64,000 nucleotides of DNA from contig CAZGKW010000012.1 in assembly GCA_964526295.1 (NCBI GenBank), positions 30,643 to 94,642 on the forward strand, written 5' to 3'. This DNA comes from an uncultured Anaerolineales bacterium. Lineage in GTDB: Bacteria; Planctomycetota; Phycisphaerae; FEN-1346. The notes beneath the pieces were generated by a model. It worked only from the letters and a program-made list of their open reading frames with translations. It had not been told where the DNA came from and did not search any database. Shown in pieces: positions 2,776 through 54,016 of the stretch. Numbering within the stretch: the first letter of the stretch is position 1; each line of letters starts with the position of its first letter. The translations under genes were made by a program, and so were the position numbers.

Positions 2776-4401
2776 GTGCATTATAATACATCCCTACTCT
2801 CTTTCGCCCTGGCCGCCTGCCTCCTGGCAACGGTCGCATCGCAGGCCCAAGCCGAGGCCACCCCTGGACCTCAGCTCAAGCCCTGCACCCTCGAGCTGGT
2901 CGACGGACGCAAGGTCGAGGGGCACCTTGCGGTGCAGTTCAAGATGGACGATCACCTCGTCGTCTACTCGCCGCGCCTGGCGACGGTGCGGTCGTTACTG
3001 AAGGAGCACGTGCATGCGCTGACCGTGAACGGTAAGCGCGAGGAGCTGAACCCGAAGCGCGAGTTGACGGAGGAGGACAAGAAGCTTCTGGGGCAGATCG
3101 AATGGCCGGACGAACCGCCGGCCGAGGGTCGCAAGCCCGCCTACACCAGCCAAAAGTGGGAAGCCCCGAGGCGGCTGCTGGTCTGGGCGGGGCCCGGCAC
3201 GAGCGGCCTTCTGCACCACTCGGCGAACTGGCTCGACAGCGGGCGCCCCGCCGAGGGGCTTTGGCCCGAAAAGGGCATCAATCCGCGGGACCTCAAGGTC
3301 GCTTGGCTGGACAGCGAGACGGACGTCCTCCTCCCCGCCGCCGGGAAGGGCTACGCGGTGGCCTACAGCGTCCGGCCGGCGGGCAACCTGGAGCTGCGGC
3401 ACCTGACCGTCGAGCCCGGCGCGACCTTCAAGGTCGCTGCCTGCCGCGCCCTGACCGGCAACGTCTGGGCGATGCGGGGGGCCGTCTTCCGCACCCGCTA
3501 CACGGCGACCCTGAGCGGCCCCCGGCACACGCTGTTCTTCAACGACCTGCCGTGGGTGGGCCCCGAGACGGAAAGGGCCCGGCCCGTACGGCGGGGGTTC
3601 GTCGTCCCCTCGCCGGAGGGGTTGAAGGTCGCCCAGTACCTCGACGTCCGAAAGGCCGACGAGGCATCCGTCACGTTCTGCGGGAGCGTCGCGACGAGCG
3701 ACGACTTCCAGATCGCGTCGGGCACGGCGATCGTCGCCCCTCACAGCCAGCTCTGGCCGGGGACCCGCTCGTCGCAGCGGCTGCCAAGCGGGGCCGTTCT
3801 GCGGCTCCACTCCGGGTCTGAGTTCGGCAAGGCCCACAACGCCACCTCGACGGGCTACGGACTGGGCGAGTTCGCCGACGGCGGGTCCGTCGATCTGGTC
3901 GTCGCCGGGCGGATCGAGGCCGGCACGCCCGACCAGCCCATCACCGAGGACGTCGGCCTGGGGGTCAGCTTCAAGAACCCCGTCGGCTGGTCCAACGGCA
4001 AGGGAACGGTGAAGAAGCGGCCGATGAGCCTTATCGTCGCCGAGGGCGCCGAGATCGTCGTCCACACCGCCGACCCCAAGAAGGCCCGACTGGTCATCGG
4101 CTGGCACCGGCGGCACAACGATTGGTTCGAGACCCGCCTTGAAGGCTACAAGCAGATGCCGGAGGAGATCGAGATCGCCTTCCTCGGCAAGCCGGCTCTG
4201 GAGCACGTGGGTTTCGAGGACGTCGCCCGCGGCGGCATCCACGTGGCGGACCCGGCTTCGGTGAAGTGGTGGCAAAACGTGTCCTTCGGCGCCCGCAACC
4301 GAGGCCGGCCCGAGGAGCTGATCGCCCCGCTCTCCGACGCCGAACGGGAGGCCATCAATTCGACGCGGTGGTACCGGCGGCTTGTTCAGCCCCCGAGGTA
4401 G
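2776..4401 (+). CDS. Secreted paralog of the same family, lacking the PA14 tail.
   Basis: GTG start followed by a signal peptide (HYNTSLLSFALAACLLATVASQAQA). It shares the N-terminal block LKPCTLELVDG.K..G.LAVQF.M..HLVVYSPRLATVRS..HVHALT..ELNPKR.LTEEDKKLLG..WPDEPPAEGR..LLVWA.PG.SG with 390..2744. Confidence 0.65.
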   Translation: MHYNTSLLSFALAACLLATVASQAQAEATPGPQLKPCTLELVDGRKVEGHLAVQFKMDDHLVVYSPRLATVRSLLKEHVHALTVNGKREELNPKRELTEEDKKLLGQIEWPDEPPAEGRKPAYTSQKWEAPRRLLVWAGPGTSGLLHHSANWLDSGRPAEGLWPEKGINPRDLKVAWLDSETDVLLPAAGKGYAVAYSVRPAGNLELRHLTVEPGATFKVAACRALTGNVWAMRGAVFRTRYTATLSGPRHTLFFNDLPWVGPETERARPVRRGFVVPSPEGLKVAQYLDVRKADEASVTFCGSVATSDDFQIASGTAIVAPHSQLWPGTRSSQRLPSGAVLRLHSGSEFGKAHNATSTGYGLGEFADGGSVDLVVAGRIEAGTPDQPITEDVGLGVSFKNPVGWSNGKGTVKKRPMSLIVAEGAEIVVHTADPKKARLVIGWHRRHNDWFETRLEGYKQMPEEIEIAFLGKPALEHVGFEDVARGGIHVADPASVKWWQNVSFGARNRGRPEELIAPLSDAEREAINSTRWYRRLVQPPR

Positions 4402-4443: not shown

Positions 4444-6630
4444 ATGCAGCGGACGTTTCGATTCGGACTGAGCATCGCCGCCCTCGGACTCGCCGCCCTG
4501 GGCTTGGCCGCCGGCGACGCCCGGGCCCTCATTAACCCCCAGCTCCAGCCCTTCATCCACCTCCCGCGGCGGTACCGGGTGGTCCTCGGGACGCGCGTCG
4601 CGTCGCGCAACCTCGACGACGGCGCGATGACGCTCGAGGTGACCGACGTGATCTCCGGCCAATTCCAGCCGCGGCGCATCCACGTCACCACCGTCGAGGC
4701 GACGCGCGACGCCCCCATCTTCATCGACGACGGCCATCCCATCGTCGCCTACGTCGGCCGCAACCCCACCCGCCACGAACCCGGCGGCGAGAACAGCATC
4801 GTCTTCTACGGCGACAACGGCGTGTGGCACGAGGCCGAGGCCGACCCTGAGGACCCCGCCCGGTGGACGTGGACCCGGGTCCGCGAGGAGCAGACTACCG
4901 AGAGCCTGTTCGGCTGCTACAACGGGGCCGCCGACCGGTTCCTGGAGATGATGCGGGACTGGAAGGCGGGCCGGGCGTTCTTCCCCCCCCGGGCCTTCAT
5001 CCAGCTCAGGCAGCAGGCCGTCGGGCGGTTCGCGAAGCCCGTGCGCGGCGTGGCCCTTTACGACCTCGACGGTGACGGCCGGTGCGACATCTACGCCTGC
5101 TCCGAGGCGGGCAACCGGGCTTACGTCCAGACCGGGCCCCTGGAGTTCACCGACCGGACCGACGCGCTGGGTCTGGCGGGCCTGGCGACGCCGAGCTCCT
5201 CGCTGGCCGATGCGAACGCCGACGGCTGGGTCGACCTGCTGGCGGGCGGCCGGCTGTTCCTCGGCGGCCCCGAGGGGTTCCGGCCCTCGGACCGGCTCCC
5301 TCCCGCGGCGAACGAAGGCGTCAAGACCGCCGCCTTCGTCCAGGTCAACGGCGACGGGTGGCCGGACGTCATCGTCTCACGCATCGGCGGCGGACTGGCC
5401 GTCTACCTCAACCCAGGCGCCGCGGCGTGGGCCGAGAAGGCGGCGTTCACCGACGCGACGAAGGCCCTGGGCCTCGACGGGGAGGCCCTCGGGGCCGACG
5501 GAACGGGCTTTGTCGCGCCCGGCGACCTGAACGGCGACGGGCGGACGGACCTCTTCTACGGCGCCGCCTCCGGCGTGCTGCTCGTCCAGGGCGAGGACGG
5601 CATGTTCACCGGCGGCGGATTGGGTCTGGATTTCTCGACCGCCGGCGCCGGTCCGGGCCTGACCGGCGCGGCCTGCTTCGGCCCCCTCTGGCGCGACGAC
5701 CGCTCCGCCCTGGTCGTGCCGACGGACTACAGTTACGCCCTGCTGACGCTCGAAGACGGCGGCCTGCGCGAGCTGGTGACCGCCACGAACGAGCTCCACA
5801 ACGAGCCGACGCAGGACCAGCTCGCCGTCCTCGCCGCCGACCTGAACGTCGACGGACGCGTCGACCTCTACACCGCCAGCCGCTCGGCCGGCGTGTCCAA
5901 CGCCTTCCACGCCAACCGCGGCTACGGCTCCTACATGAACTCCGTCAAGGCCAAGCCGGCGGGGTTCCCCGACGCCCACCGGACGGGCGCCTGGGGCCTG
6001 GCGGCCGGCGACGTCGACGGCGACGGGGCAAACGAGCTGCTCCTCGGCGGCGTCGACGGGAACCTGACGCTTCTCGTCAACGAGACACTCCGCGAACGTA
6101 AACCCAAGCTGAATCCGACCTATCACGAAGCCAAGCTCCTCGGGACGCGGGTCCTCTCGGTCCACGTGACGGGCAAGGTCGGAGTCCTTGGCGCGGTCGT
6201 GACCCTGGCCGAGGCCCCATCCGCGAAGAAGGGCAGCTCGATCGGCGGCGCGGGCGGTCGCGTCATCGCCCGGCGCAGCGTCGGCACGCAGTTCCTGACG
6301 GGCTGCCGGGGGCCGGATACGATCAACCTGGCCGTCCGCGAGCCCGGCCGGTACGTCCTCGCGGTCCGCTACGCCGACGGGCACGAGCGGACGTGGCCCG
6401 TCAACCTGTCGGCCTCGACTTCGACGCACGTGAAGCTTCGCGCCGAGCGTCAGACGACCGACGGGCCGCTACGACCCGTCGGGATTGAAGCTGCACTTGA
6501 CACCCCGCACGCACGGGCTGCTCTGCCTCTGGGGGTTCGCGAGCGCGAAGGCCCCGGCCGCCGGGAGCCACCATCCGCTTCGTATGGGGCGCGTGGTTTC
6601 TCCCCACCGCGACAGGCCCACCGGACCTGA
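4444..6630 (+). CDS. FG-GAP/VCBS repeat protein (ASPIC/UnbV-like), secreted.
   Basis: Signal peptide MQRTFRFGLSIAALGLAALGLAAG. Repeated D.DGDG..D motifs: DLDGDGRCDIY, DANADGWVDLL, VNGDGWPDVIV, DLNGDGRTDLFY, DVDGDGANELLLGG. Confidence 0.7.
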   Translation: MQRTFRFGLSIAALGLAALGLAAGDARALINPQLQPFIHLPRRYRVVLGTRVASRNLDDGAMTLEVTDVISGQFQPRRIHVTTVEATRDAPIFIDDGHPIVAYVGRNPTRHEPGGENSIVFYGDNGVWHEAEADPEDPARWTWTRVREEQTTESLFGCYNGAADRFLEMMRDWKAGRAFFPPRAFIQLRQQAVGRFAKPVRGVALYDLDGDGRCDIYACSEAGNRAYVQTGPLEFTDRTDALGLAGLATPSSSLADANADGWVDLLAGGRLFLGGPEGFRPSDRLPPAANEGVKTAAFVQVNGDGWPDVIVSRIGGGLAVYLNPGAAAWAEKAAFTDATKALGLDGEALGADGTGFVAPGDLNGDGRTDLFYGAASGVLLVQGEDGMFTGGGLGLDFSTAGAGPGLTGAACFGPLWRDDRSALVVPTDYSYALLTLEDGGLRELVTATNELHNEPTQDQLAVLAADLNVDGRVDLYTASRSAGVSNAFHANRGYGSYMNSVKAKPAGFPDAHRTGAWGLAAGDVDGDGANELLLGGVDGNLTLLVNETLRERKPKLNPTYHEAKLLGTRVLSVHVTGKVGVLGAVVTLAEAPSAKKGSSIGGAGGRVIARRSVGTQFLTGCRGPDTINLAVREPGRYVLAVRYADGHERTWPVNLSASTSTHVKLRAERQTTDGPLRPVGIEAALDTPHARAALPLGVREREGPGRREPPSASYGARGFSPPRQAHRT

Positions 6631-6650
6631 CTACCGGCACCTGGACGCCG

Positions 6651-8732
6651 ATGAGGAGCCGACCGACCCAAATGCCACGGAATCGCAAGAAAGCCCGAAC
6701 GAAACCGGCCCGCAGGGCGGCCCGGCCTTCGGCGTCGGCTCGGGCGGGAGCCCAGGGGACGCTACTTGCCGCCGTGCCTCCCCCCGGCCGCACGACTCGC
6801 CTCTGCCTGTGGGTCGCTTTGTGGCTGGTCTTCGTGCTGGGCCTGGTCCTCGGGTACCGGGAGATCGGCAGCCCCGACCTCGGGTTCCACCTCAGCTCGG
6901 CCCGATGGATCGTCGAGAACGGCACGGTCCCCCGGACGGACATCTTCACCTACACCGTCACCGACCACGCCTACGTCGACCTTCAGTGGCTGTTTCAGCT
7001 CTTCGTGTACGGGCTGCTTCAGGTGGGCGGCACGGCCGGGATCGTGGCCGCGACGACCGGCCTGACGCTCGCGTTCGCGGGGCTCTTGCTCTTGCGGACG
7101 TGGCGGCGCGACGGGCGGATTCCGCTGGCCGCGGTGCTGCTGATGATGCTGTTCCTGCTGGCGACACACTGGGAGCCCCGGCCGCACCTGCTGTCGTGGA
7201 TGTGGGGGTCGCTGGTTCTGCTGGTCTTGGAAGAGCACGCCCGGGGCTCGCGGCGGTGGCTGCCGGCCCTGCCCGTCATCATGGTCCTCTGGGTGAACAC
7301 ACATTCGCTGTTCGTGCTGGGCCTGGTGATCATCGTCGTCTACGCCGTCCGCATGACGGCCGCGGCGCTCCGGGCCCGGGCGAACGGCCGGCCGGGGCCG
7401 CTCGACAGGAGGCTCCTCCTCTGGTCGGTGGCGGCGGTCGCGGCGTGCCTCGCGAATCCCTACCACGTCGACGGCCTGCTGCTTCCCCTGACGCAGTACG
7501 GCGACATCCAGCCGGGTTCGGCCTTCACGTCGCCCGAGACAGGCATCTCGGAGTTCACCTCGCCCTTCAGCTTCAACGAGTACGTCGTGGACGGCCGGCT
7601 GGTGCTGTTCCAGCCGCGGCTCTACTACCAGCTCTTCACGGTCCTGGCGGTCGCCGGGCTGATTGGCAACTGGCGGCGGTGGCGGCCCGCGGAGATGGTC
7701 CTGTTCGCCGGCTTCCTCTACGTCTTCGCCCGGGCGAACAAGAACTTCGGCTACTTCGTGATGGCCGTCTTCCCGATGGCCGCGACCGGCTTGGACCGCC
7801 TGGGCGGACAGCTGAGGGCTGCGCTCGTCCGGAAGTCGCCGAAAGGGCTCGAGCCGCACGGCGCTCGTCCGTGGCGACTCCTCTGGCTGGGGGCGTGCGG
7901 GACCGTCTGCCTCGTGCTCATTCCCGCCGTCTGGACGGGTTGGCTGTACGACCTGGCGTGGGTGTCCCATCGCCGCGGGACGGGGTTCAACGAGTCGCTG
8001 CTCCCGGTCGAGGCGTCCGAGTTTATCAATCGCCATAAGATCGAGGGCCGGCCCCTCAACACCTGGAACGACGGCGGCTACCTGTCGTGGGCGACCCGAC
8101 AGAAGGTCTTTATCTGTAGCCACGGCGAGGTGATGGGCCAGGGCTTTTACGGCCGGTACGTCGAGGCCAAGCAGCCGGGGGGCCTGGCCGACGCGCTCAA
8201 CCGGCACGTGCCGACCGTGGCCGTGGTGCCCTACAGGAGCGTCCCGTACTGGCTGTACGCCTTCGACCGGGCCAAGGCGTGGCGGCTGGTCCATGCGGAC
8301 GACCGCACGGCGGTGTTCGTCCATCCGCCGGCAGCGCCGCTGGTGCCCCCCATGCCCGAGCCCAGGGCCGGCGCCGACTACCCGGCGTTCGACGATGCGG
8401 ACGTGGAGCGCGTCGTCCGCCAGGCGGCGTCGGCTCGGCCGCCGAACCTGGGGGAATGGTTCCGGGGCCGGCGGGCCTGGCCCCTGCGAGAGATGGCCCG
8501 CTCGGGCTTCTACCTCCAGACGCGGGAGGTGGACGCCTGCATCGGCACGGCCTTGGCGGGGCTGGAACGGACGCCGTTCCTCGTGCCCGACCTGCTGCTG
8601 ACCCTGGGTCACGCCCTGAACGCACGGGGCCGCTACGGCCTGGCCGACCGGTGCTACGAAGCGTTCCTGCGGGCGGAGGACGATCCGCGCATCGCCCGCG
8701 AGATCGAGCAGTTGCGGCGGCAGCGCCGCTGA
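6651..8732 (+). CDS. Polytopic inner-membrane protein, possibly a GT-C-type (ArnT/PMT-like) glycosyltransferase, with a C-terminal soluble TPR-like tail.
   Basis: More than 10 predicted TM helices in the N-terminal two thirds (LCLWVALWLVFVLGLVLG, LLLLRTW.., VIMVLWVNTHSLFVLGLVIIVVYAV..). It is convergent with a GT2 Dpm1/ArnC-like gene. The start may be M8 (6672). Confidence 0.45.
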   Translation: MRSRPTQMPRNRKKARTKPARRAARPSASARAGAQGTLLAAVPPPGRTTRLCLWVALWLVFVLGLVLGYREIGSPDLGFHLSSARWIVENGTVPRTDIFTYTVTDHAYVDLQWLFQLFVYGLLQVGGTAGIVAATTGLTLAFAGLLLLRTWRRDGRIPLAAVLLMMLFLLATHWEPRPHLLSWMWGSLVLLVLEEHARGSRRWLPALPVIMVLWVNTHSLFVLGLVIIVVYAVRMTAAALRARANGRPGPLDRRLLLWSVAAVAACLANPYHVDGLLLPLTQYGDIQPGSAFTSPETGISEFTSPFSFNEYVVDGRLVLFQPRLYYQLFTVLAVAGLIGNWRRWRPAEMVLFAGFLYVFARANKNFGYFVMAVFPMAATGLDRLGGQLRAALVRKSPKGLEPHGARPWRLLWLGACGTVCLVLIPAVWTGWLYDLAWVSHRRGTGFNESLLPVEASEFINRHKIEGRPLNTWNDGGYLSWATRQKVFICSHGEVMGQGFYGRYVEAKQPGGLADALNRHVPTVAVVPYRSVPYWLYAFDRAKAWRLVHADDRTAVFVHPPAAPLVPPMPEPRAGADYPAFDDADVERVVRQAASARPPNLGEWFRGRRAWPLREMARSGFYLQTREVDACIGTALAGLERTPFLVPDLLLTLGHALNARGRYGLADRCYEAFLRAEDDPRIAREIEQLRRQRR

Positions 8733-16094: not shown

Positions 16095-16095
16095 G

Positions 16096-16184
16096 AAAAA
16101 GACACTAAGTGTCTTTTTCGGGCACGTAAGTCGTTGCGAAGAAGGGGTTTACCCACACAAAAAAGACACTAAGTGTCTTTTTTT
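16096..16184. repeat. Composite AT-rich double-hairpin element (copy D). Two AAAAAGACAC-TAA-GTGTCTTTTT hairpins flank a 40-bp core.
   Basis: Hairpins at 16096..16118 and 16159..16184. The same hairpin recurs six more times at 49.7–51.9 kb. The core ends TTTACCCACAC, against TTTATCCACACC in copies A–C. Confidence 0.85.
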
Positions 16185-34778: not shown

Positions 34779-35195
34779 TCAACTTTCCGTTCGCCGCGTG
34801 GCGACGCTGACCTTCGTCGCCCCGCCCAGCTTGGCCTGGTCGATGACGCGGACCAGGAGGCCGGACTGGACGGCCGGATCGGCCTGTACGATGACCGGCA
34901 TGTCGCGGTTGGCGAGCGTGTTCTCGACGAGCAACCGGACGCCGCCGATGGGGACTCGTCTGCCCTCGCAAAGCACCTCGCCCTGCTGAGTCATTTCGAT
35001 CAGGATGCTGGTTTTCTCGTCGCTTCGGGACGCACCCCCGGGCTGCGGCTTGTCGACCTGCACGCCGGACTCGTCCACGAACGCCGTCGTCACGATGAAG
35101 AAGATCAGGAGGATGAAGACGCAGTCCATGAGGGGAGAGATATCGACCGCGCCCTCGGTGCCCTCTTCGTCGGCGGTTTCTCGAAAACGTCTCAC
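34779..35195 (-). CDS. exbD: ExbD/TolR biopolymer transport protein.
   Basis: AVDISPLMDCVFILLIFFIVTTAFV is the ExbD signature. Confidence 0.85.
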   Translation of the reverse strand: MRRFRETADEEGTEGAVDISPLMDCVFILLIFFIVTTAFVDESGVQVDKPQPGGASRSDEKTSILIEMTQQGEVLCEGRRVPIGGVRLLVENTLANRDMPVIVQADPAVQSGLLVRVIDQAKLGGATKVSVATRRTES

Positions 35196-35216: not shown

Positions 35217-35630
35217 TCAGCCCTGACCTGGCCGCGTCGCGATGCTGACTTTCGTGGCCTCGGCCAGCTTGGCCTCCTCGAGCACCCGGACCAGCACGCC
35301 GGAATGGGCGGCGGCGTCGGCCTGGATGATCACGGGGACCTGCTCCTTCCGGATGAGCCGCTTCACGAGCGGCTGGACCCCGCTGACGCCGATCTCGCGT
35401 CCCGCGTAGACCACCTCGCCCTTGGCGGTGACCGCGATGAGAATGCTGTTCTTCTCGAGGCGGACGCCGGACGCGGCCTGGGGCCGGTCGACCTCCACCC
35501 CGGTCTCCTCCACGAACGTCGTCGTCACGATGAAGAAGATCAGGAGGATGAAGACGCAGTCGAGCAAGGGAGAGATGTCGATCCCGCCCTCGCTGCTCTC
35601 ATCCATCGCCGCTTCGCGGAAGCGTCCCAT
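35217..35630 (-). CDS. exbD: ExbD/TolR paralog.
   Basis: GIDISPLLDCVFILLIFFIVTTTFV, a tandem duplicate of the downstream exbD. Confidence 0.85.
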   Translation of the reverse strand: MGRFREAAMDESSEGGIDISPLLDCVFILLIFFIVTTTFVEETGVEVDRPQAASGVRLEKNSILIAVTAKGEVVYAGREIGVSGVQPLVKRLIRKEQVPVIIQADAAAHSGVLVRVLEEAKLAEATKVSIATRPGQG

Positions 35631-48005: not shown

Positions 48006-49475
48006 ATGAACCCCGTCAAACTCGTGCGAAAGCTCCTCAAGGCCCTCCGCGGCGGCGCCAAGGCCCCCCAGATCGTCCTGGCCGTCCTCCTCGGCTTCGC
48101 CGTCGGCATGGTCCCCGGCGTCAACCTGACGCTCCTGGGGTGCCTCGTCCTGCTGCTCATCCTCAACACCAACGGCGGCCTGGCGGGCCTCTCGGCCATG
48201 CTCGGCAAGGGCCTGTGCCTCGTGCTCGCCCCCGTGACGTTCCGAATCGGCTACTTCCTGATGCACACGGCGGGCCTGGTGGGCATCGTCCGGAAGCTGG
48301 CCGACACGCCCGTCCTCGCCCTGCTGGACCTCCACGTCTACTGCGTCCTGGGGGCGGTCCCGATCATCCTGGTGGTCGGCGGAGGCCTGGGCATCGCCGT
48401 CGCCGCCGCCATCCGGCAGGCCCAGACCCGCATGAGGGCCTCCCACGGAAAAAGCGAGAGGGTCCGGAAGGTCGCAGCCAATCCCGTGGTCAAGTTCCTC
48501 GTCCGCGTCGCCGTCGGCAAACGCAAGCCCGGCCAGACCGACGAGCCCCAGCCGCTCTTCAAGACCAGCCGCCTCATCGCCGGCGGCATCGTCCTGATGC
48601 TGATCGTCATCCTCCAGCTCGTGTTCCTCGATCACCTGGCCCGCCGGGGCCTCGAGGCGGGCCTGGCCCAGGCCGCCGGGGCCGAGGTCAACGTCGAGAA
48701 GGCCCACCTCTCCCTGGCCCAAGGGCGGCTCGTCGTCGAGGGACTCCAGGTCACCGACCCGGCCCGCCCGACGCACAACCAGGTCCGGTCGGACCGCATC
48801 GTCGCGGACTTCAGCATCGCCGACCTGCTGGCCAAGCGGTTCGTCTTCGACTCGGTCCGGAGCGCGAGCACCCGCCTCGACGTGCCGCGGGAGGGGCCCG
48901 GCGAGGTCTATCGCCCGCCGGAAGACGACGAGCCGCTCCTGCCGCCGCTGCCGGAAGGCGGCCTCGGGTCGGTCCGCGAATACCTGGAACGTATCAAGCG
49001 GCTGAAGGAGAAGATCGACAAGGTCCGGGACTTTCTCCGGAAGGTCGACCCGGCCAAGGACGAGCCCTCGCCGGAGGAACTGGCCGAGGCGGCACGCCTG
49101 AAGGGCTACCTCCGTCTCTCGGCCAAGGACTACCTGGCCAGGCACCCCACCTGGGTCATCCGCGACCTCGAAGCCTCCGGCGTCGTCCTCTACGAGGACC
49201 TCCCGACCGTGACCATCCGCGGCAAGGACCTCGCCAGCCACCCCTCGCTCTATGAGAAGGAGGCGTCGATCGACGTGCGGCCCGAGGGCGACGTCGCCGA
49301 ACAGCTCAAGAAAGGCGTCTGGGACAAGGTCCGAGAGGGGGCCGGCAAGCTCCTCGGCGGCGGGGCCGACGAGGAAGACCCCACGAAGGACGCTCAGCCG
49401 GAAGAGAAGGACGGAGAGAAATCCGACCTGGAGAAGGTCGGCGAAGGGTTCAGGAAGCTCCTCGGCGGCGACTGA
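48006..49475 (+). CDS. Membrane protein with an N-terminal DUF2062/TIGR03546-like domain fused to a long charged C-terminal region (TIGR03545-like).
   Basis: MNPVKLVRKLLKALRGGAKAPQIVLAVLLGFAVGMVPGVNLTLLGCLVLLLILNTNGGLAGL, then further TM helices and an acidic, coiled-coil tail. Confidence 0.4.
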   Translation: MNPVKLVRKLLKALRGGAKAPQIVLAVLLGFAVGMVPGVNLTLLGCLVLLLILNTNGGLAGLSAMLGKGLCLVLAPVTFRIGYFLMHTAGLVGIVRKLADTPVLALLDLHVYCVLGAVPIILVVGGGLGIAVAAAIRQAQTRMRASHGKSERVRKVAANPVVKFLVRVAVGKRKPGQTDEPQPLFKTSRLIAGGIVLMLIVILQLVFLDHLARRGLEAGLAQAAGAEVNVEKAHLSLAQGRLVVEGLQVTDPARPTHNQVRSDRIVADFSIADLLAKRFVFDSVRSASTRLDVPREGPGEVYRPPEDDEPLLPPLPEGGLGSVREYLERIKRLKEKIDKVRDFLRKVDPAKDEPSPEELAEAARLKGYLRLSAKDYLARHPTWVIRDLEASGVVLYEDLPTVTIRGKDLASHPSLYEKEASIDVRPEGDVAEQLKKGVWDKVREGAGKLLGGGADEEDPTKDAQPEEKDGEKSDLEKVGEGFRKLLGGD

Positions 49476-49705
49476 GCGGGCGTCCCGACGTGCTCCTTAT
49501 GTCCCCTCTCCCTCGACGGGCTCGCACGGCATAGCCTTGGCGACGCTGGGAGAGGGAAAGCATGCGTGTGTCGGGCGAGGGCGAGCCGGGCCGCCGATGT
49601 AAGTCGGCGGGGACGCGCGGCCGGGCTCCCCGCGGAGCGGCCCCAGGCCCGAGACGCGCCGGTGGTCCGTCAGGCATCGGCATCGAGCACCGTGCCTGGA
49701 GTCGG

Positions 49706-49754
49706 CGGCGTTGGACGTTGAGCGCTCGGCGTTGGACGTTCGGCGTTGGACGTT
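49706..49754. repeat. Iteron-like direct repeats: three copies of CGGCGTTGGACGTT (the last two exactly tandem).
   Basis: Copies at 49706..49719, 49727..49740 and 49741..49754, immediately upstream of repeat copy A. Confidence 0.7.
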
Positions 49755-49774
49755 CTGTCTCTGAGTCGAACGAG

Positions 49775-49865
49775 AAAAAGACACTAAGTGTCTTTTTGGT
49801 AGAAGCTAAGCCCTTTATCCACACCGGGTTAGGCGCAGAAAAAAGACACTAAGTGTCTTTTTTTT
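49775..49865. repeat. Composite double-hairpin element, copy A (hairpin / 41-bp core / hairpin).
   Basis: AAAAAGACACTAAGTGTCTTTTT + GGTAGAAGCTAAGCCCTTTATCCACACCGGGTTAGGCGCAG + AAAAAAGACACTAAGTGTCTTTTTTTT. Confidence 0.9.
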
Positions 49866-50219
49866 CCGTGGTCGCCGCTCCCGCCGGGCGCGGCACTCCT
49901 TACATACCCTCTCCCTTGACGGGAGAGGGAACGGGTGAGGGTGTCGGCGGCCTTCGGCCGCCGCCTGCCGTCACCCCGAGCGGAGCGAAGCGCACTCAAG
50001 GGGTCTCGCCGTGCGTTGCCGTTCCAGGGAGTGCGGTGGCAGGGCCCGCGCCAGCCGGCGTCGACACCGCTTTCGTTTCGCGCACGACAGGGAAAGCGGC
50101 CCCTCCGGTCTCCGGTCCTGCGCCTCGTGCCCGCAGCATTGCCCCGGAACATCGTCCTGACAGGACGTTCCGGATGCCGCCGCCCCCGAGCCGCCAGGAC
50201 GTCTCGCGAAACCGTCAAG

Positions 50220-50310
50220 AAAAAGACACTAAGTGTCTTTTTGGTAGAAGCTAAGCCCTTTATCCACACCTGGTTAGGCGCAGAAAAAAGACACTAAGTG
50301 TCTTTTTTTT
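50220..50310. repeat. Composite double-hairpin element, copy B.
   Basis: Identical to copy A except for one core substitution (CACCTGG against CACCGGG). Confidence 0.9.
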
Positions 50311-50445
50311 CCCGCGGAAGTAGACGTGCATGGCGTTGGGTTCTTCCACGGGGAGCCCCAGGTCGGCGACGCATTTCACCTTGCGGTGCTGCGGGCCGTC
50401 CGGATCATTCTTGCCCGGGAACAGGCGAAACCCGCCGCCGGCGGG

Positions 50446-51561
50446 TCAATCGCCCTTCTCCGGCGAATCCTTCTTCGCAGGTGCATCCCCTTCCTCACTC
50501 TTGTCCTCGGTCCGCGGCTTGACGACCGTGACGCCCTTGCCGCGGGAAGGGGGCGCCTCGGCGCCTTGCTGTGGCTGGCGAATCTTGTCGAGGTCGAACT
50601 CGCGGACGGTCCGAAGGACCGTCGCGTTCGGGAACTTCGGCAAGGCCTCGGCCCGGACCGCCGCCGCCTTCTCGGGCTCTTTCTGCTGCACGTGACACCG
50701 GAACAGCGTGTAATAGACGTCCGGGAGCAACAGCGACTGGGGATACTCCCTGATGAACTGCCGGCCCAAGGCCTTGCTGCGCTCGAGCGCCGCCTCGCGC
50801 TCAAGATGGTCCGCGCCGAGCCCGTCGATGATGTCGGCGTACATGACGGTCTCTCGGAAGGCGCTCCCGCGGTGCTGTTCGATGATGGTCGCCGCAACGT
50901 CATCAAAGGCCTTTCGGCCGAGGCTGCCGTCTGGCCCCGTACTTCCCATGATCCGCTGTGCGTAGTGGGCTTCCACAAGAGCTCGCCCGAGACGGAGAGC
51001 GAACACTCTGTCACCCAGCTTTGCGATGCTGTCGGGCACCTCGGCCAGAGGCAAGACCTCGACCGAGACCGGCGAGGAGACGAACCGGAACTCCTTTTCC
51101 TCGACGATGCTGGCCCGAACCCGGTAGCGACCCGGTTTCGGCAGGACCAGCAGGTCGGTGCGTTCATACCGCTGGCCCGCTTCAATCGTCCCGGGGACCC
51201 AGTGGCGCTCGGTGTAAAAGTCGTATTCGATGGGCCGAGGCGAAGGCTTGATGTTCCGGACCACCTCGAGGTCCCAGAGCCGCCTGAACTCACTTTCCTC
51301 GCCCAGCGCGATATCGAGACTGTATCCGTCCCGGGAGTCCCACCGAATCGTGGGCCGCCGAGATGTGAAATGCGCTTGCGACGGGTTGGCCATCGTTGTT
51401 CGCAGCACAATTGGCTCGCCGCAGATGTAGCGCGCCTTATTGGCTCTCAGGTGGAGCTCAAGCCGCCCGGATGGCTCTTGGCTTAAGGCACTCATCGCGA
51501 GTAGAATAACCGTGCAGAGCACAACAGGTAGCACACGCCCAACGACCAGATGCGGTGCCAT
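50446..51561 (-). CDS. Hypothetical secreted protein encoded in a lower-GC (~60%) insert bracketed by repeat copies B and C.
   Basis: Signal peptide MAPHLVVGRVLPVVLCTVILLAMSALS. Codon usage and GC content differ from the flanking genes. No recognisable family. Confidence 0.5.
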   Translation of the reverse strand: MAPHLVVGRVLPVVLCTVILLAMSALSQEPSGRLELHLRANKARYICGEPIVLRTTMANPSQAHFTSRRPTIRWDSRDGYSLDIALGEESEFRRLWDLEVVRNIKPSPRPIEYDFYTERHWVPGTIEAGQRYERTDLLVLPKPGRYRVRASIVEEKEFRFVSSPVSVEVLPLAEVPDSIAKLGDRVFALRLGRALVEAHYAQRIMGSTGPDGSLGRKAFDDVAATIIEQHRGSAFRETVMYADIIDGLGADHLEREAALERSKALGRQFIREYPQSLLLPDVYYTLFRCHVQQKEPEKAAAVRAEALPKFPNATVLRTVREFDLDKIRQPQQGAEAPPSRGKGVTVVKPRTEDKSEEGDAPAKKDSPEKGD

Positions 51562-51582
51562 AACAGAGCCCCTTCCGTAAGG

Positions 51583-51832
51583 TTAGTCGCCCGCCGATTC
51601 CCTGAGGTCTCTAATGTGCTCATGCGAGAACCGGTCCGGAGGGCCTTGCTTCAGGTCAAACCACTGTTTCCAGCAGGGGATCGTGTCGGGTCTTTCCCAT
51701 CCAATGATCCCGTCCTTGTTCGGATCCGGTTGCCAGACGGTGAGGCTCCCGGTGTATACCGGCGTCTCGAGTCCGAGCACATGCCCCACCTCGTGCGCCA
51801 CGACCACAGGAAGCGATTTCCCCTTGGTCAAG
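51583..51832 (-). pseudogene. 3' fragment of a snapalysin/metzincin-like zinc metalloprotease gene, 5'-truncated by repeat copy C.
   Basis: ..VVAHEVGHVLGLETPVYTGS.. contains the HExxHxxGL zinc-binding motif. The reading frame runs straight into the repeat (MWIKGLASTKKTLSVFFL is the repeat translated). Confidence 0.6.
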
Positions 51833-51923
51833 AAAAAGACACTAAGTGTCTTTTTGGTAGAAGCTAAGCCCTTTATCCACACCTGGTTAGGCGCAGAAAA
51901 AAGACACTAAGTGTCTTTTTTTT
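51833..51923. repeat. Composite double-hairpin element, copy C.
   Basis: Identical in sequence to copy B. Confidence 0.9.
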
Positions 51924-52450
51924 CTGCGGGCCGTCCGGATCATTCTTGTCGGGGAACAGGGGAAATCCGGGGACACAATACGGTTTTTCCCGGCCGCGTC
52001 CGGCGTCGGCCCCGGACGGCCAACGGCGCAAAGCGCAGCCTCAACCGGGGGCTCACGGTGGCGTTCCGGGGCGGGGCAAGGGGCAGGCGGCCGTGGCCCC
52101 GCCCCAAGTGAGCAGCGATGCAGCGGCTGTTGCTATGCCGCCGGAAGCCCCGGCGCGTGGCCACAACAGCTAGTCCGGATTAGCGCGTCTTGCGGGCAAC
52201 CTGCTGCCAAGCCGCCCTAGCCTCCGGCGAGGCCATGTCGAAGGCCTCGGTCTGCTCCCACACCTCGTGCAGCACAGTACGGCCCAGGTCGGTAAACTCG
52301 AAGCACACGTCCTCGCCGAGAGGGCCAACTAGGCCCAAAACAAGCGTATTGCCTGGGGCGTAATGCCCGCAGGATCGCGAAATATGGCGGCGCGGCAAGG
52401 CTCCGTTGGGCCGGGCGGGCCCGCCGCCGCGTCGTAGCGTTGTATTTCAA

Positions 52451-54016
52451 TCATGGACGACTCTCTTTCCATCCCATCGCGTGTGCGCGGCGGATCGGGG
52501 CGTCCGTACCCCGACGTCGGGGCGCCGCCGTCAGCACCGCAGCGGCAGGCGCCGCCCCGGTCATCTGAAGGCTGCGGTCCTTCGCCGAGAGGACCAGGGC
52601 CGTGGCGGCCGTGGCCGCCAGACGGGGGGCCGCCGCGAAGTCCTGCGGATTGTTGTCCCGGTTCGGCTGGTAGTAGAACGTCCCGTCCGGGCAGTGGGCC
52701 AGGGCGAACGACCACCGATTGTGGTCCATGAGCTTGCGGAAGCTGGGCGGGTCGACCGCCGCCCCCAGGGCCGTCCACACCATCCCGATCAGGGGCGACC
52801 CGTGCGTGTCGGGGAACGTGTCGGGATGGTCGCCGATGCACCGGGCCCCGCGGAGGGCGTACTCGCGGTACTCCCGGCCGCCCGTCGGCGAAAGGTAATG
52901 CGCGAGGACGGCCGCGCCGGTCCGGCCCATGTCGGCGTATTTGGGGTTGTTCGCCCCGCCGTCCTTGTACCAGACGTAGCCCCTGGCGTTCGTGCCGCGG
53001 ACGACGAAGTCGTGGGCGGCCCGGTAGCGGCGGAGGTCGACCTCGATGCCGCACCTCTGGAGGAGCGACCAGGCCATCTTGGCCTGCATGGTAATGATGT
53101 TGATTGGTCCGTACCCGTTGATCTTGCCCTCGTCGTCCCAGGGTCGGTGTCCCCACCCGCCGCGGGGGGCCTGGGCGGCGGCCAGCCAGGTGCTGATCTC
53201 CTCCAGTTCAGGCCGGACCCACGCCTCGCCCGTCAGGAGGTAGTACTCCGCCAGGACCGTCCCGTAGAGGCCGTAGTGCCAGCACTTGTAGCCGCGGAAG
53301 TCGAGCTCCGGGCCGGTCATCCCGGCCATGGCCCGGACGGCCTTTTCGACGGCGGGCCGGTACTCGGCGCGCCCGCTCGCCATCAGGGCCAGCGCGGCAA
53401 ACGTGTTGATGTGCGGCCGCCCGTGCCACAGGCCGTCCGGCCGCTGCTTCCGGGCGAGATACGCGCAGGCTTCCTCCAGGATGCGGTCGGTCTTGGGGCA
53501 ATCGTAGGGATACGTCTTTGCGAAGCGGCCGTAGGTCGTCGGCAGCTCGAGCTCGACCTTGCGGGGCCCCCCGTCGCGGACGACGGCCAGGACGAGCCGC
53601 CCTCTGAGCTTCGGGCCCTGGCTCGCCTCCAGGGCGTCGCCGAAGTCCATCATCGGCCCCTCGTAGCCGAACTTCCCGACGCCGTAGCCGAACTTGTGCG
53701 GCGTGGTGAAGGGTTTTCCGTTCGCCCCGACGATGCGGTCGCCGACCTGGAGGCGTCCGGCGGCGGGCGTGTTGTCGAAGACGAACGCGACCTCCAGGAC
53801 GGTGGGCGCGTCCTCGGGCAGCCTGGCCCGTGCCCCGGTGATGCCGAGGTTGATGAACCAGCCGCCCGCCTCGGCGTCGGGGCCGACCTTCGTCGTCTTG
53901 GCCCAGGTGGCCTTCTCGCCGCTTCGAAGGGCCCACGCCGGGGGGCACCTGGAGCAGACCGCGAGGAACGCGAGCAGGGCCATCGCGCCGCGACTCAAAC
54001 GGCGACGGCCCTTCAT
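52451..54016 (-). CDS. Secreted PDZ-domain protein fused to an alpha/alpha-toroid (prenyltransferase/terpene-cyclase-like repeat) domain.
   Basis: Signal peptide MKGRRRLSRGAMALLAFLAVC. PDZ-like segment LQVGDRIVGANGKPF. Repeated Q..DG.W-type motifs (RKQRPDGLWHG, AQAPRGGWGHRPW). Confidence 0.45.
   Translation of the reverse strand: MKGRRRLSRGAMALLAFLAVCSRCPPAWALRSGEKATWAKTTKVGPDAEAGGWFINLGITGARARLPEDAPTVLEVAFVFDNTPAAGRLQVGDRIVGANGKPFTTPHKFGYGVGKFGYEGPMMDFGDALEASQGPKLRGRLVLAVVRDGGPRKVELELPTTYGRFAKTYPYDCPKTDRILEEACAYLARKQRPDGLWHGRPHINTFAALALMASGRAEYRPAVEKAVRAMAGMTGPELDFRGYKCWHYGLYGTVLAEYYLLTGEAWVRPELEEISTWLAAAQAPRGGWGHRPWDDEGKINGYGPINIITMQAKMAWSLLQRCGIEVDLRRYRAAHDFVVRGTNARGYVWYKDGGANNPKYADMGRTGAAVLAHYLSPTGGREYREYALRGARCIGDHPDTFPDTHGSPLIGMVWTALGAAVDPPSFRKLMDHNRWSFALAHCPDGTFYYQPNRDNNPQDFAAAPRLAATAATALVLSAKDRSLQMTGAAPAAAVLTAAPRRRGTDAPIRRAHAMGWKESRP

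Follow-up and report, generated by a model that had tools for sequence, protein, structure and literature searches.

A protease remnant and a mosaic partner gene between identical copies of a double-hairpin repeat in a planctomycete-like genome

Results

Gene content and base composition of the interval

The DNA analyzed here is a 64,000-nt stretch of contig CAZGKW010000012.1 (assembly GCA_964526295.1), referred to as the window, and its subject is an interval (50311–51832) between two copies, B and C, of a short double-hairpin repeat. The interval holds a 371-aa open reading frame (ORF) and, upstream of it on the minus strand, the 3′ remnant of a protease gene (Table 1). An earlier inspection of the letters alone (the sequence-only reading) had described identical repeat copies bracketing the interval, and B and C do align over 98 nt with 100% identity (BLAST E 6.6e-46); the 371-aa signal-peptide ORF was likewise found where it had been described. 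Read along the minus strand, the order of parts is X′ (a 46-nt piece considered below), C, the protease C terminus, the partner gene fused to a protease N-terminal fragment, B, a 346-nt spacer, and A, a further copy of the repeat. A DUF748-like gene that ends at 49475 and a DUF6288 gene that ends at 52451 border the region.

The GC content of the interval had been put at ∼60%, below that of its surroundings. The interval is indeed deviant, at 63.4% as compared to 69.9% for the window, the earlier figure being slightly low, and the 2-kb bin 50001–52000 has the lowest value of 32 bins (61.9%). GC content at third codon positions (GC3) is 0.78 for the 371-aa ORF and 0.75 for the protease remnant, as compared to 0.81–0.97 for all other likely genes in the window. 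The dip is not uniform, being confined to about 50872–51826 and the AT-rich repeats, and only the first 230 codons of the ORF are low (GC3 of 0.73 in codons 1–230, a host-like 0.91 in codons 231–327, and 0.77 in the tail). The real low-GC segment consists of these 230 codons and the protease remnant.

Table 1. Features of the interval, its flanks, and the double-hairpin repeat (positions in the window)
Feature	Position	Strand	Description
Repeat, fourth copy	16095–16184	+	Identical hairpins, diverged core; between ABC permease stop codon and binding-protein gene start
Repeat copy A	49773–49867	+	Double-hairpin; one mismatch to B and C (G for T at 49828)
Repeat copy B	50214–50311	+	GTCAAG, hairpin AAAAAGACACTAAGTGTCTTTTT, 41-nt core (with TTATCCACA), same hairpin with T8 run
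∼78-nt stretch	50312–50388	-	Between B and X, missing between C and X′; bounded by CCGCGG / CTGCGG
Protease N-terminal fragment	50314–50577	-	264 nt, ∼residues 85–157 of P0011; ends at repeat B
371-aa ORF	50446–51561	-	Signal peptide, Ig-like beta-sandwich, TPR-like helical domain, disordered tail; mosaic fusion
ORF codons 231–327	50581–50871	-	GC3 0.91; 95.9% identical to P0002; putative gene-conversion/recombination tract
ORF codons 1–230	50872–51561	-	GC3 0.73; residues 30–230 59.7% identical to paralogue P0002
Protease C-terminal remnant	51583–51828 (ORF to 51832)	-	∼Residues 530–612 of full-length relatives, stop included; 83 codons; GC3 0.75
Repeat copy C	51827–51924	+	Left edge cuts protease C-terminal remnant; right edge adjoins X′
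X′	51924–51969	-	46 nt, GFPLFPDKNDPDGPQ; copy of part of the N-terminal fragment, 91% identical to X (50389–50434); adjoins C

The truncated gene belongs to a family of metzincin-motif proteins

About 16 proteins of the protease family were collected, relatives of 466–659 aa being found via the loci of the partner gene. Full-length relatives are ∼600 aa long, with a long unannotated N-terminal part and a C-terminal metzincin zinc site, and C termini of the closer subfamily share the succession HExxHxxGxxH ... DGIM ... C.K.W.D ... P.RFS ... LRE. Among solved structures, the family profile matched metzincins only, namely adamalysin 1kuf (E 3.7e-4), karilysin (8e-3), and ADAMTS-5 (1e-2), followed more weakly by archaemetzincin (2e-2), snapalysin (1c7k; 7e-2), and matrix metalloproteinases, and the DGIM of the family aligned with the CIM Met-turn of adamalysin. 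Full-length relatives (P0006, P0007, P0011, and others) carry both motif and Met, and the profile matches in the Protein Data Bank are at E 4e-4 and weaker; Pfam and NCBIfam scores of the family were all under the curated cut-offs. The sequence-only reading had called the gene snapalysin/metzincin-like, and of this label the metzincin motif stands, while nothing specific to snapalysin was found. Identity with snapalysin (M7) was rejected since the relatives are 466–659 aa long with His as third ligand, and since the snapalysin match (E 0.07) is weaker than those to adamalysins and karilysin (4e-4 to 8e-3).

Homology of the remnant to full-length relatives extends to the first base of repeat C, as expected for a true remnant of a ∼600-aa gene and in keeping with the earlier proposal that copy C cuts the 3′ end of a protease gene. 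The remnant is 51% identical to residues 526–612 of the 612-aa protease of locus L003 (E 1e-22) and 54% identical to P0007, and matches the family hidden Markov model (HMM) at E 8e-23. Its zinc motif reads HEVGHVLGLET, with loss of the third His, whereas all nine close relatives (9/9) have HExxHxxGxxH; it reads DGII where 14 of 15 relatives have the Met-turn Met (DGIM in the closest). The third zinc ligand, the Met-turn Met, and a complete catalytic domain, all expected of a functional metzincin, are thus lacking. Judged from its sequence the remnant is dead, because it is truncated and both the third zinc His and the Met-turn Met are lost. The search of the window by tblastn with the L003 protease detected no other parts of the protease gene, and a word-indexed database search with the 83-aa remnant returned only its own NCBI gene call.

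The protease is paired with a recurrent partner gene. On L003, a JGI metagenome contig, the 612-aa protease gene lies 20 nt upstream of a homologue of the 371-aa ORF; in L013, a locus from a Phycisphaerae metagenome-assembled genome, the partner gene follows the protease with an 8-nt overlap. One NCBI contig of 58,610 nt encodes both a protease, P0007, called at 466 aa, and a 371-aa partner, P0002, probably in the same protease-then-partner order. The 371-aa ORF of the window starts 21 nt after the stop of the protease remnant, as in relatives. Pairing was dropped for a distant protease relative (L014), the 316-aa gene downstream of which is not a partner homologue. L003 has two further genes, one before the protease (2244–2963) and one behind the partner (6027–6860), that have their first ∼30 residues in common (MRDFWNGAYKRFLVRGPTDITIH.SRNHSF), a likeness that points to module-level duplication in relatives too.

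The partner family and the predicted structure of the 371-aa ORF

The sequence-only reading had taken the 371-aa ORF for an orphan of unknown family, a view that no longer holds, since it is the conserved downstream partner of the protease (L003, L013, P0007/P0002). An exhaustive profile search of 1.84 billion representatives recovered 36 clusters with E ≤ 1e-10, a number that rises to 59 with E ≤ 1e-3, mostly of 310–390 aa. On Phycisphaerae-type contigs, members of the family lie behind the ∼600-aa protease. No stop interrupts the ORF, in which the family-invariant and near-invariant residues are retained. An AlphaFold model built from 28 sequences (predicted local distance difference test [pLDDT] 87, predicted template modeling score 0.81) comprises a signal/anchor helix, a beta-sandwich (35–170), a helical repeat domain (178–328), and a disordered tail; an earlier model built from three sequences (pLDDT 51) was set aside. 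Fold searches returned generic Ig-like, CARDB, and macroglobulin (MG) matches for the former domain and TPR matches, e.g., BamD and YbgF, for the latter. Similarity to the Bacillus proteinase inhibitor 3isy and to MG domains was no stronger than to antibodies, and an inhibitor role would be a guess; that the partner might bind the protease would likewise be a guess, made from the gene pairing. Homologues align with the ORF from residue ∼24, such that the 371-aa start fits the family better than that of the NCBI call P0001 (315 aa), which begins at Met57 and drops the signal peptide and the first beta-strands. Partner domains are also embedded or repeated in very large metagenome proteins, P0028 (2048 aa) and P0041 (2289 aa, 15 matched stretches), and the beta-sandwich module would therefore be reused in other architectures. 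Expression of the 371-aa ORF is doubtful, because the operon promoter appears lost and the flanking hairpins resemble bidirectional intrinsic terminators.

The ORF is a mosaic and a fusion

Over residues 30–230, P0002 is 68.1% identical to P0003, a homologue from another organism, as compared to 59.7% to the window ORF; because P0002 is the closer to P0003, the window copy would belong to an old or foreign lineage and would not be a recent duplicate. Identity to P0002 switches at codon ∼231, coincident with the jump in GC3, and from residue 274 to the end the window ORF and P0002 are identical. Partner homologues in loci of 60–65% GC have GC3 values of 0.65–0.73, and the lower GC3 of codons 1–230 and of the protease remnant, typical of homologues from lower-GC genomes, makes a foreign origin probable. 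These values might otherwise reflect AT-biased mutational decay of a dead resident copy, with the low-GC3 stretch being the part that was not refreshed by the paralogue, and the clearly dead protease remnant with its lost catalytic residues is in line with this. Such decay is nonetheless very unlikely to account for the composition, as an uninterrupted ORF with its invariant residues would hardly be left by neutral change that lowered GC3 from ∼0.9 to 0.73, the GC3 of the ORF matches that of the homologues from lower-GC genomes, and the ORF resembles the resident paralogue no more than it does the homologue of another organism.

Partner-family homology stops at residue ∼328 of the ORF, where P0003 has its stop codon. 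Codons 329–371 and the in-frame TGA at 50446–50448 that terminates the ORF are supplied by a fragment of the protease N-terminal region, which continues for the next 132 nt up to the first base of repeat B. Its last residues there read ...MHVYFR, after which relatives go on with LWDVDDPS. The fragment matches relatives colinearly and in one frame (P0011 residues 85–142, E 1.4e-5; P0016 residues 51–91, E 6e-4; P0018, P0020, and P0021, E 2e-3 to 6e-3), and positions 54–125 of the family HMM match it at E 0.0027, the sole six-frame match in the window besides the C-terminal remnant. The protease had been described as decapitated; its C-terminal piece is indeed cut, but two N-terminal scraps survive, one behind the partner gene and ending at B, the other beside C. 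That the protease scraps end at repeat copies agrees with the earlier suggestion that the repeats took part in rearrangement.

The 36-residue tail of the ORF also closes P0004, an otherwise unrelated protein encoded on the P0007/P0002 contig, and P0007 starts at the V of WDVDDP. The simplest reading is that P0004 and P0007 would be the two parts of a single paralogous protease gene, interrupted by the same TGA. If so, fusion of the partner gene to the protease N-terminal fragment would most simply have arisen by duplication or recombination within tandem modules. A second, more complete copy of the module (P0004/P0007 and P0002) probably lies elsewhere in the genome, on another contig.

Architecture of the double-hairpin repeat

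Copies A, B, and C consist of a palindrome, AAAAAGACAC-TAA-GTGTCTTTTT, a 41-nt core, and the palindrome repeated with a longer A/T run. The fourth copy has a core equal in length and of other sequence, giving ∼75% identity overall, and the only core stretch common to both element types is TTTAYCCACAC. All eight hairpins in the window (8/8) are identical, with loop TAA on the plus strand and hence in the same orientation, and fall with two types of core; shuffled versions of the window gave 0 matches to the hairpin. The element measures 90–98 nt with terminal arms of 23–26 nt that are 92–96% complementary. Folded separately, its hairpins have energies of -9 to -18 kcal/mol, and A and U tracts flank them on either strand; alternatively, the repeat can fold as one long hairpin (z about -5.5).

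Two independent Logan assemblies, L006 (SRR7048218) and L007 (SRR7048227), contain the fourth copy without a single base change, and their contigs match the window at 100%; the element is therefore real and not an artefact of the record. Misassembly of the region between 49.7 and 52.0 kb is a separate matter. A short-read assembly might have mis-threaded pieces across the 98-nt element, present three times, and across several hundred bases common with the paralogous module, the low-GC segment really lying elsewhere. The ∼140 3′ codons of the ORF are ∼96–100% identical at the protein level to P0002 on another contig, such that a long repeat is probable; Logan contigs of the same runs end at 52529 and 52667, short of the region, and exact-product look-ups found no contig covering B to C. 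We regard this explanation as quite unlikely, as the junctions of unique sequence to repeat (remnant/C, C/X′, and YFR/B) must be present in reads for any assembler to make them, ordinary reads can span a 98-nt repeat, and the remainder of the contig matches Logan contigs at 100%. The repeat was found in no other organism searched, so that the pieces belong to the same genome whatever their order.

The cores of A, B, and C each contain a perfect DnaA-box consensus, TTATCCACA (49815–49823, 50260–50268, and 51873–51881), and no other perfect match occurs in the window; the fourth copy keeps TTACCCACA (16149–16157). The fourth copy is situated inside an ABC transporter operon, starting right after the permease stop and ending 17 nt before the binding-protein start, where, judging from its sequence, it might attenuate the last gene of the operon, that for the binding protein, or uncouple its expression. 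A second, GC-rich repeat family with REP-like hairpins, CCCTCTCCC...GGGAGAGGG, occurs with similar flanks at 49493–49590 and 49893–49950 in the same intergenic region as copy A and is unrelated to the AT-rich element. Just left of copy A lies a short tandem array (49706–49755) of about 2–3 copies of the unit TCGGCGTTGGACGT.

Occurrence and classification of the repeat

No match to the hairpin pair was found in 185,579 species genomes, nor any to the repeat in viral contigs and plasmids, and a metagenome search with the 23-mer returned five contigs of low GC (25–38%), each with one unrelated site in AT-rich flanks. Rfam at permissive thresholds gave nothing real, no tRNAs were detected, and a literature search for the hairpin sequence returned nothing. 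The window contains no transposase, integrase, or cas gene that could be found. Terminal inverted repeats, small size, lack of coding capacity, and several copies (four in 64 kb) are features of miniature inverted-repeat transposable elements (MITEs); no target-site duplication surrounds any of the four copies, whose flanks have no direct repeat in common. The hairpin A5–6 GACAC-TAA-GTGTC T5–8, in both orientations, is predicted by folding to be an intrinsic bidirectional terminator.

Other classes were considered and not retained. A REPIN (a doublet of repetitive extragenic palindromic [REP] sequences), with its palindromes inverted and a RAYT gene in the genome, seems unlikely, as all eight hairpins lie in direct orientation (loop TAA, plus strand) and the window has no Y1 transposase. 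An integron gene cassette was discarded on finding a single GTTAGGC in the core and no inverse core, by eye and without a pattern scan, and no integrase in the window. The geometry of a 23-nt repeat with a 41–42-nt spacer does fit a CRISPR mini-array, but three copies carry the same “spacer,” no cas genes are present, and no viral sequence matches the A/B/C core exactly. PADLOC gave no support to a defense system. A replication origin, the idea of which came from the DnaA boxes in the repeats and from parA and parB at 60.7–62.6 kb, ∼9 kb away, was dropped, as GC skew does not turn around 50 kb and one of the copies is located within an operon at a distance of 34 kb. A bolder reading, to which we give only a slight probability, is that the element would be a new type of small mobile element in Planctomycetota that picks up and moves gene fragments by recombination between copies, with B–C as a cargo cassette and not passive debris; its ends would be identical bidirectional terminators, and its core may keep a DnaA-box-like motif (TTATCCACA or TTACCCACA).

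Flanks of copies B and C

Sequence X, behind B, encodes GF(R/P)LFP(G/D)KNDPDGPQ of the protease N-terminal fragment, and its counterpart X′ adjoins C. Alignment of the two regions gives C plus X′ as equal to B plus X minus 78 nt, and the CCGCGG / CTGCGG bounds of the missing stretch suggest its deletion by microhomology. X′, the N-terminal fragment, and the C-terminal remnant therefore put protease-family sequence on three of the four sides of B and C.

This arrangement bears on whether the interval is a mobilized cassette, which the sequence-only reading had offered beside deletion of the protease 5′ half by recombination between repeats. A circle made of one repeat copy and the N-terminal scrap, partner, and C-terminal scrap might have been excised elsewhere through recombination of two repeat copies and have entered a pre-existing site of repeat plus X′ by Campbell-type integration, or, as a variant, two repeats might have moved the intervening DNA as a composite MITE would; in either case the gene pieces would already have been truncated when they arrived. 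As direct repeats, B and C match perfectly, down to 4–6 extra bases (GTCAAG) not in A, X-type sequence follows both of them exactly as in an R-M-R integration product, and the interval is in part compositionally foreign. Homology to the protease upstream of X′ is not significant, and X′ need not share a gene with the C-terminal remnant. We consider mobilization unlikely, given the absence of target-site duplication at any of the four copies, of a transposase or recombinase in the window, and of any second cassette copy or empty site among the sequences found; moreover, recombination with resident sequence is indicated by the fused N-terminal fragment and by the 3′ third of the ORF, which is host-like, and a history in place needs no mobile step.

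Apparent homology of 51975–52260 to the protease N terminus was dropped, as 19 of 100 shuffles reached the best score. A 72-aa ORF (52180–52398, minus strand) between X′ and the DUF6288 gene has a GC3 of 0.75, lower than in the genes of the window, and matched no family in Pfam, NCBIfam, or PADLOC; it could be further debris. Elsewhere in the window, two pairs of diverged direct repeats, 78–81% identical, occur in coding regions (465–764 and 2851–3150; 34793–35194 and 35231–35629), and are probably tandem paralogous genes or domains.

A history of decay and recombination in place

On balance, the B–C interval is probably the decayed remnant of a diverged two-gene module, probably acquired horizontally, that was broken at the repeats and whose 3′ part was overwritten by a paralogue. 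The observed homologies, the positions of the junctions, and the coincident switch in composition and identity can be joined into the following order and mechanism of events, which would entail a foreign origin and a paralogue in the same genome. The module would have consisted of a ∼600-aa secreted protein with a metzincin site and, ∼20 nt on, a ∼330-aa partner with signal peptide, Ig-like beta-sandwich, and TPR-like domain. A diverged copy of it may have been broken by deletions or illegitimate joins at repeat copies, and the truncation of the remnant at C implies, on this history of breakage in place, that ∼1.2 kb of the protease gene was lost there. The protease would have been left as scraps that end at repeats: 83 codons left of C, 46 nt right of C, and 264 nt reaching to B. 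The 264-nt N-terminal piece would have been joined in frame to the partner gene at that gene's natural end, providing its last 43 codons and stop; a microhomology deletion of 78 nt would have set the C-side flank apart from the B-side flank; and the 3′ part of the partner gene would have been overwritten through ectopic recombination with the paralogous module.

Several points weigh against this account. Matches of the N-terminal fragment are modest (E 1e-5 to 3e-3, in small search spaces). Upstream of X′, no homology to the protease rises above shuffled sequence, and X′ and the C-terminal remnant may therefore have come from different genes. The R-M-R arrangement, in which the cassette has a repeat plus X on either side, would be expected just as well from a circle integrating at a repeat. 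The location of P0002, P0004, and P0007 in the same genome as the window is something we infer, and the putative gene-conversion tract, like the identity of the tail and of the X region, is read from protein identity only. None of the independent contigs retrieved covers copies A, B, or C, and the databases hold no close relative showing an empty site.

Discussion

The locus offers a worked example of how short dispersed repeats, together with ectopic recombination between paralogues, may dismantle and re-fuse genes in a high-GC, planctomycete-like genome. One consequence is that the tail and stop codon of an annotated “secreted protein” appear to be a piece of a neighboring protease family. 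The comparison also brings to light a gene pair that recurs and lacks annotation, namely a ∼600-aa metzincin-motif protein and its Ig-like/TPR partner. The repeat itself is unusual in that its perfect palindromes are rich in AT while the genome has 70% GC, and in that its ends are identical but its cores diverge; it was found in no other sequence searched. Repeat-associated gene decay and recombination between paralogues are a known kind of event, and current understanding is unchanged.

As in known metzincins (adamalysin/reprolysin M12B, matrixin M10, and snapalysin M7), the full-length relatives of the protease have HExxHxxGxxH followed by a conserved Met. In contrast to a known metzincin, they match only over the zinc helix and the Met-turn region. 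Snapalysin is further set apart by its size (∼130 aa, as compared to ∼600 aa in the relatives) and by Asp in place of His as third ligand.

The B–C arrangement may be compared to IS26-type translocatable units and to Campbell-type integration. Unlike IS26, B–C has no transposase, and movement would need general recombination across a 98–143-nt repeat; unlike either, it has no second site or free form that was observed. The likeness lies in one repeat on each side of the cargo, in direct orientation and with no target duplication, a geometry that is expected of integration at a pre-existing repeat copy.

With respect to small dispersed repeats, the element resembles the REP/REPIN doublets mobilized by RAYT transposases in its paired short palindromes with a short spacer and, for A and the fourth copy, in its extragenic position. 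It differs in the AT-richness of its palindromes, which contrasts with the 70% GC of the genome, in their direct and not inverted orientation as judged from loop asymmetry, and in that the window has no RAYT gene or Y1 transposase. MITEs differ from it in their target-site duplications and cognate transposases, neither of which was found in the window; each end of the repeat is itself a perfect palindrome with the same loop orientation (TAA), making the ends direct as much as inverted, and the repeat has two core types with identical ends and is absent from the other genomes and metagenomes searched. Like the MITEs found in or near genes, such as the Correia elements of Neisseria and the palindromic elements of Rickettsia, the repeat is short (∼90 nt) and noncoding, has terminal inverted repeats and terminator-like ends, can fold as one hairpin, and occurs as several dispersed copies within or beside genes. 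Given these features of its sequence, the repeat may be filed as a lineage-specific, non-autonomous, MITE-like element.

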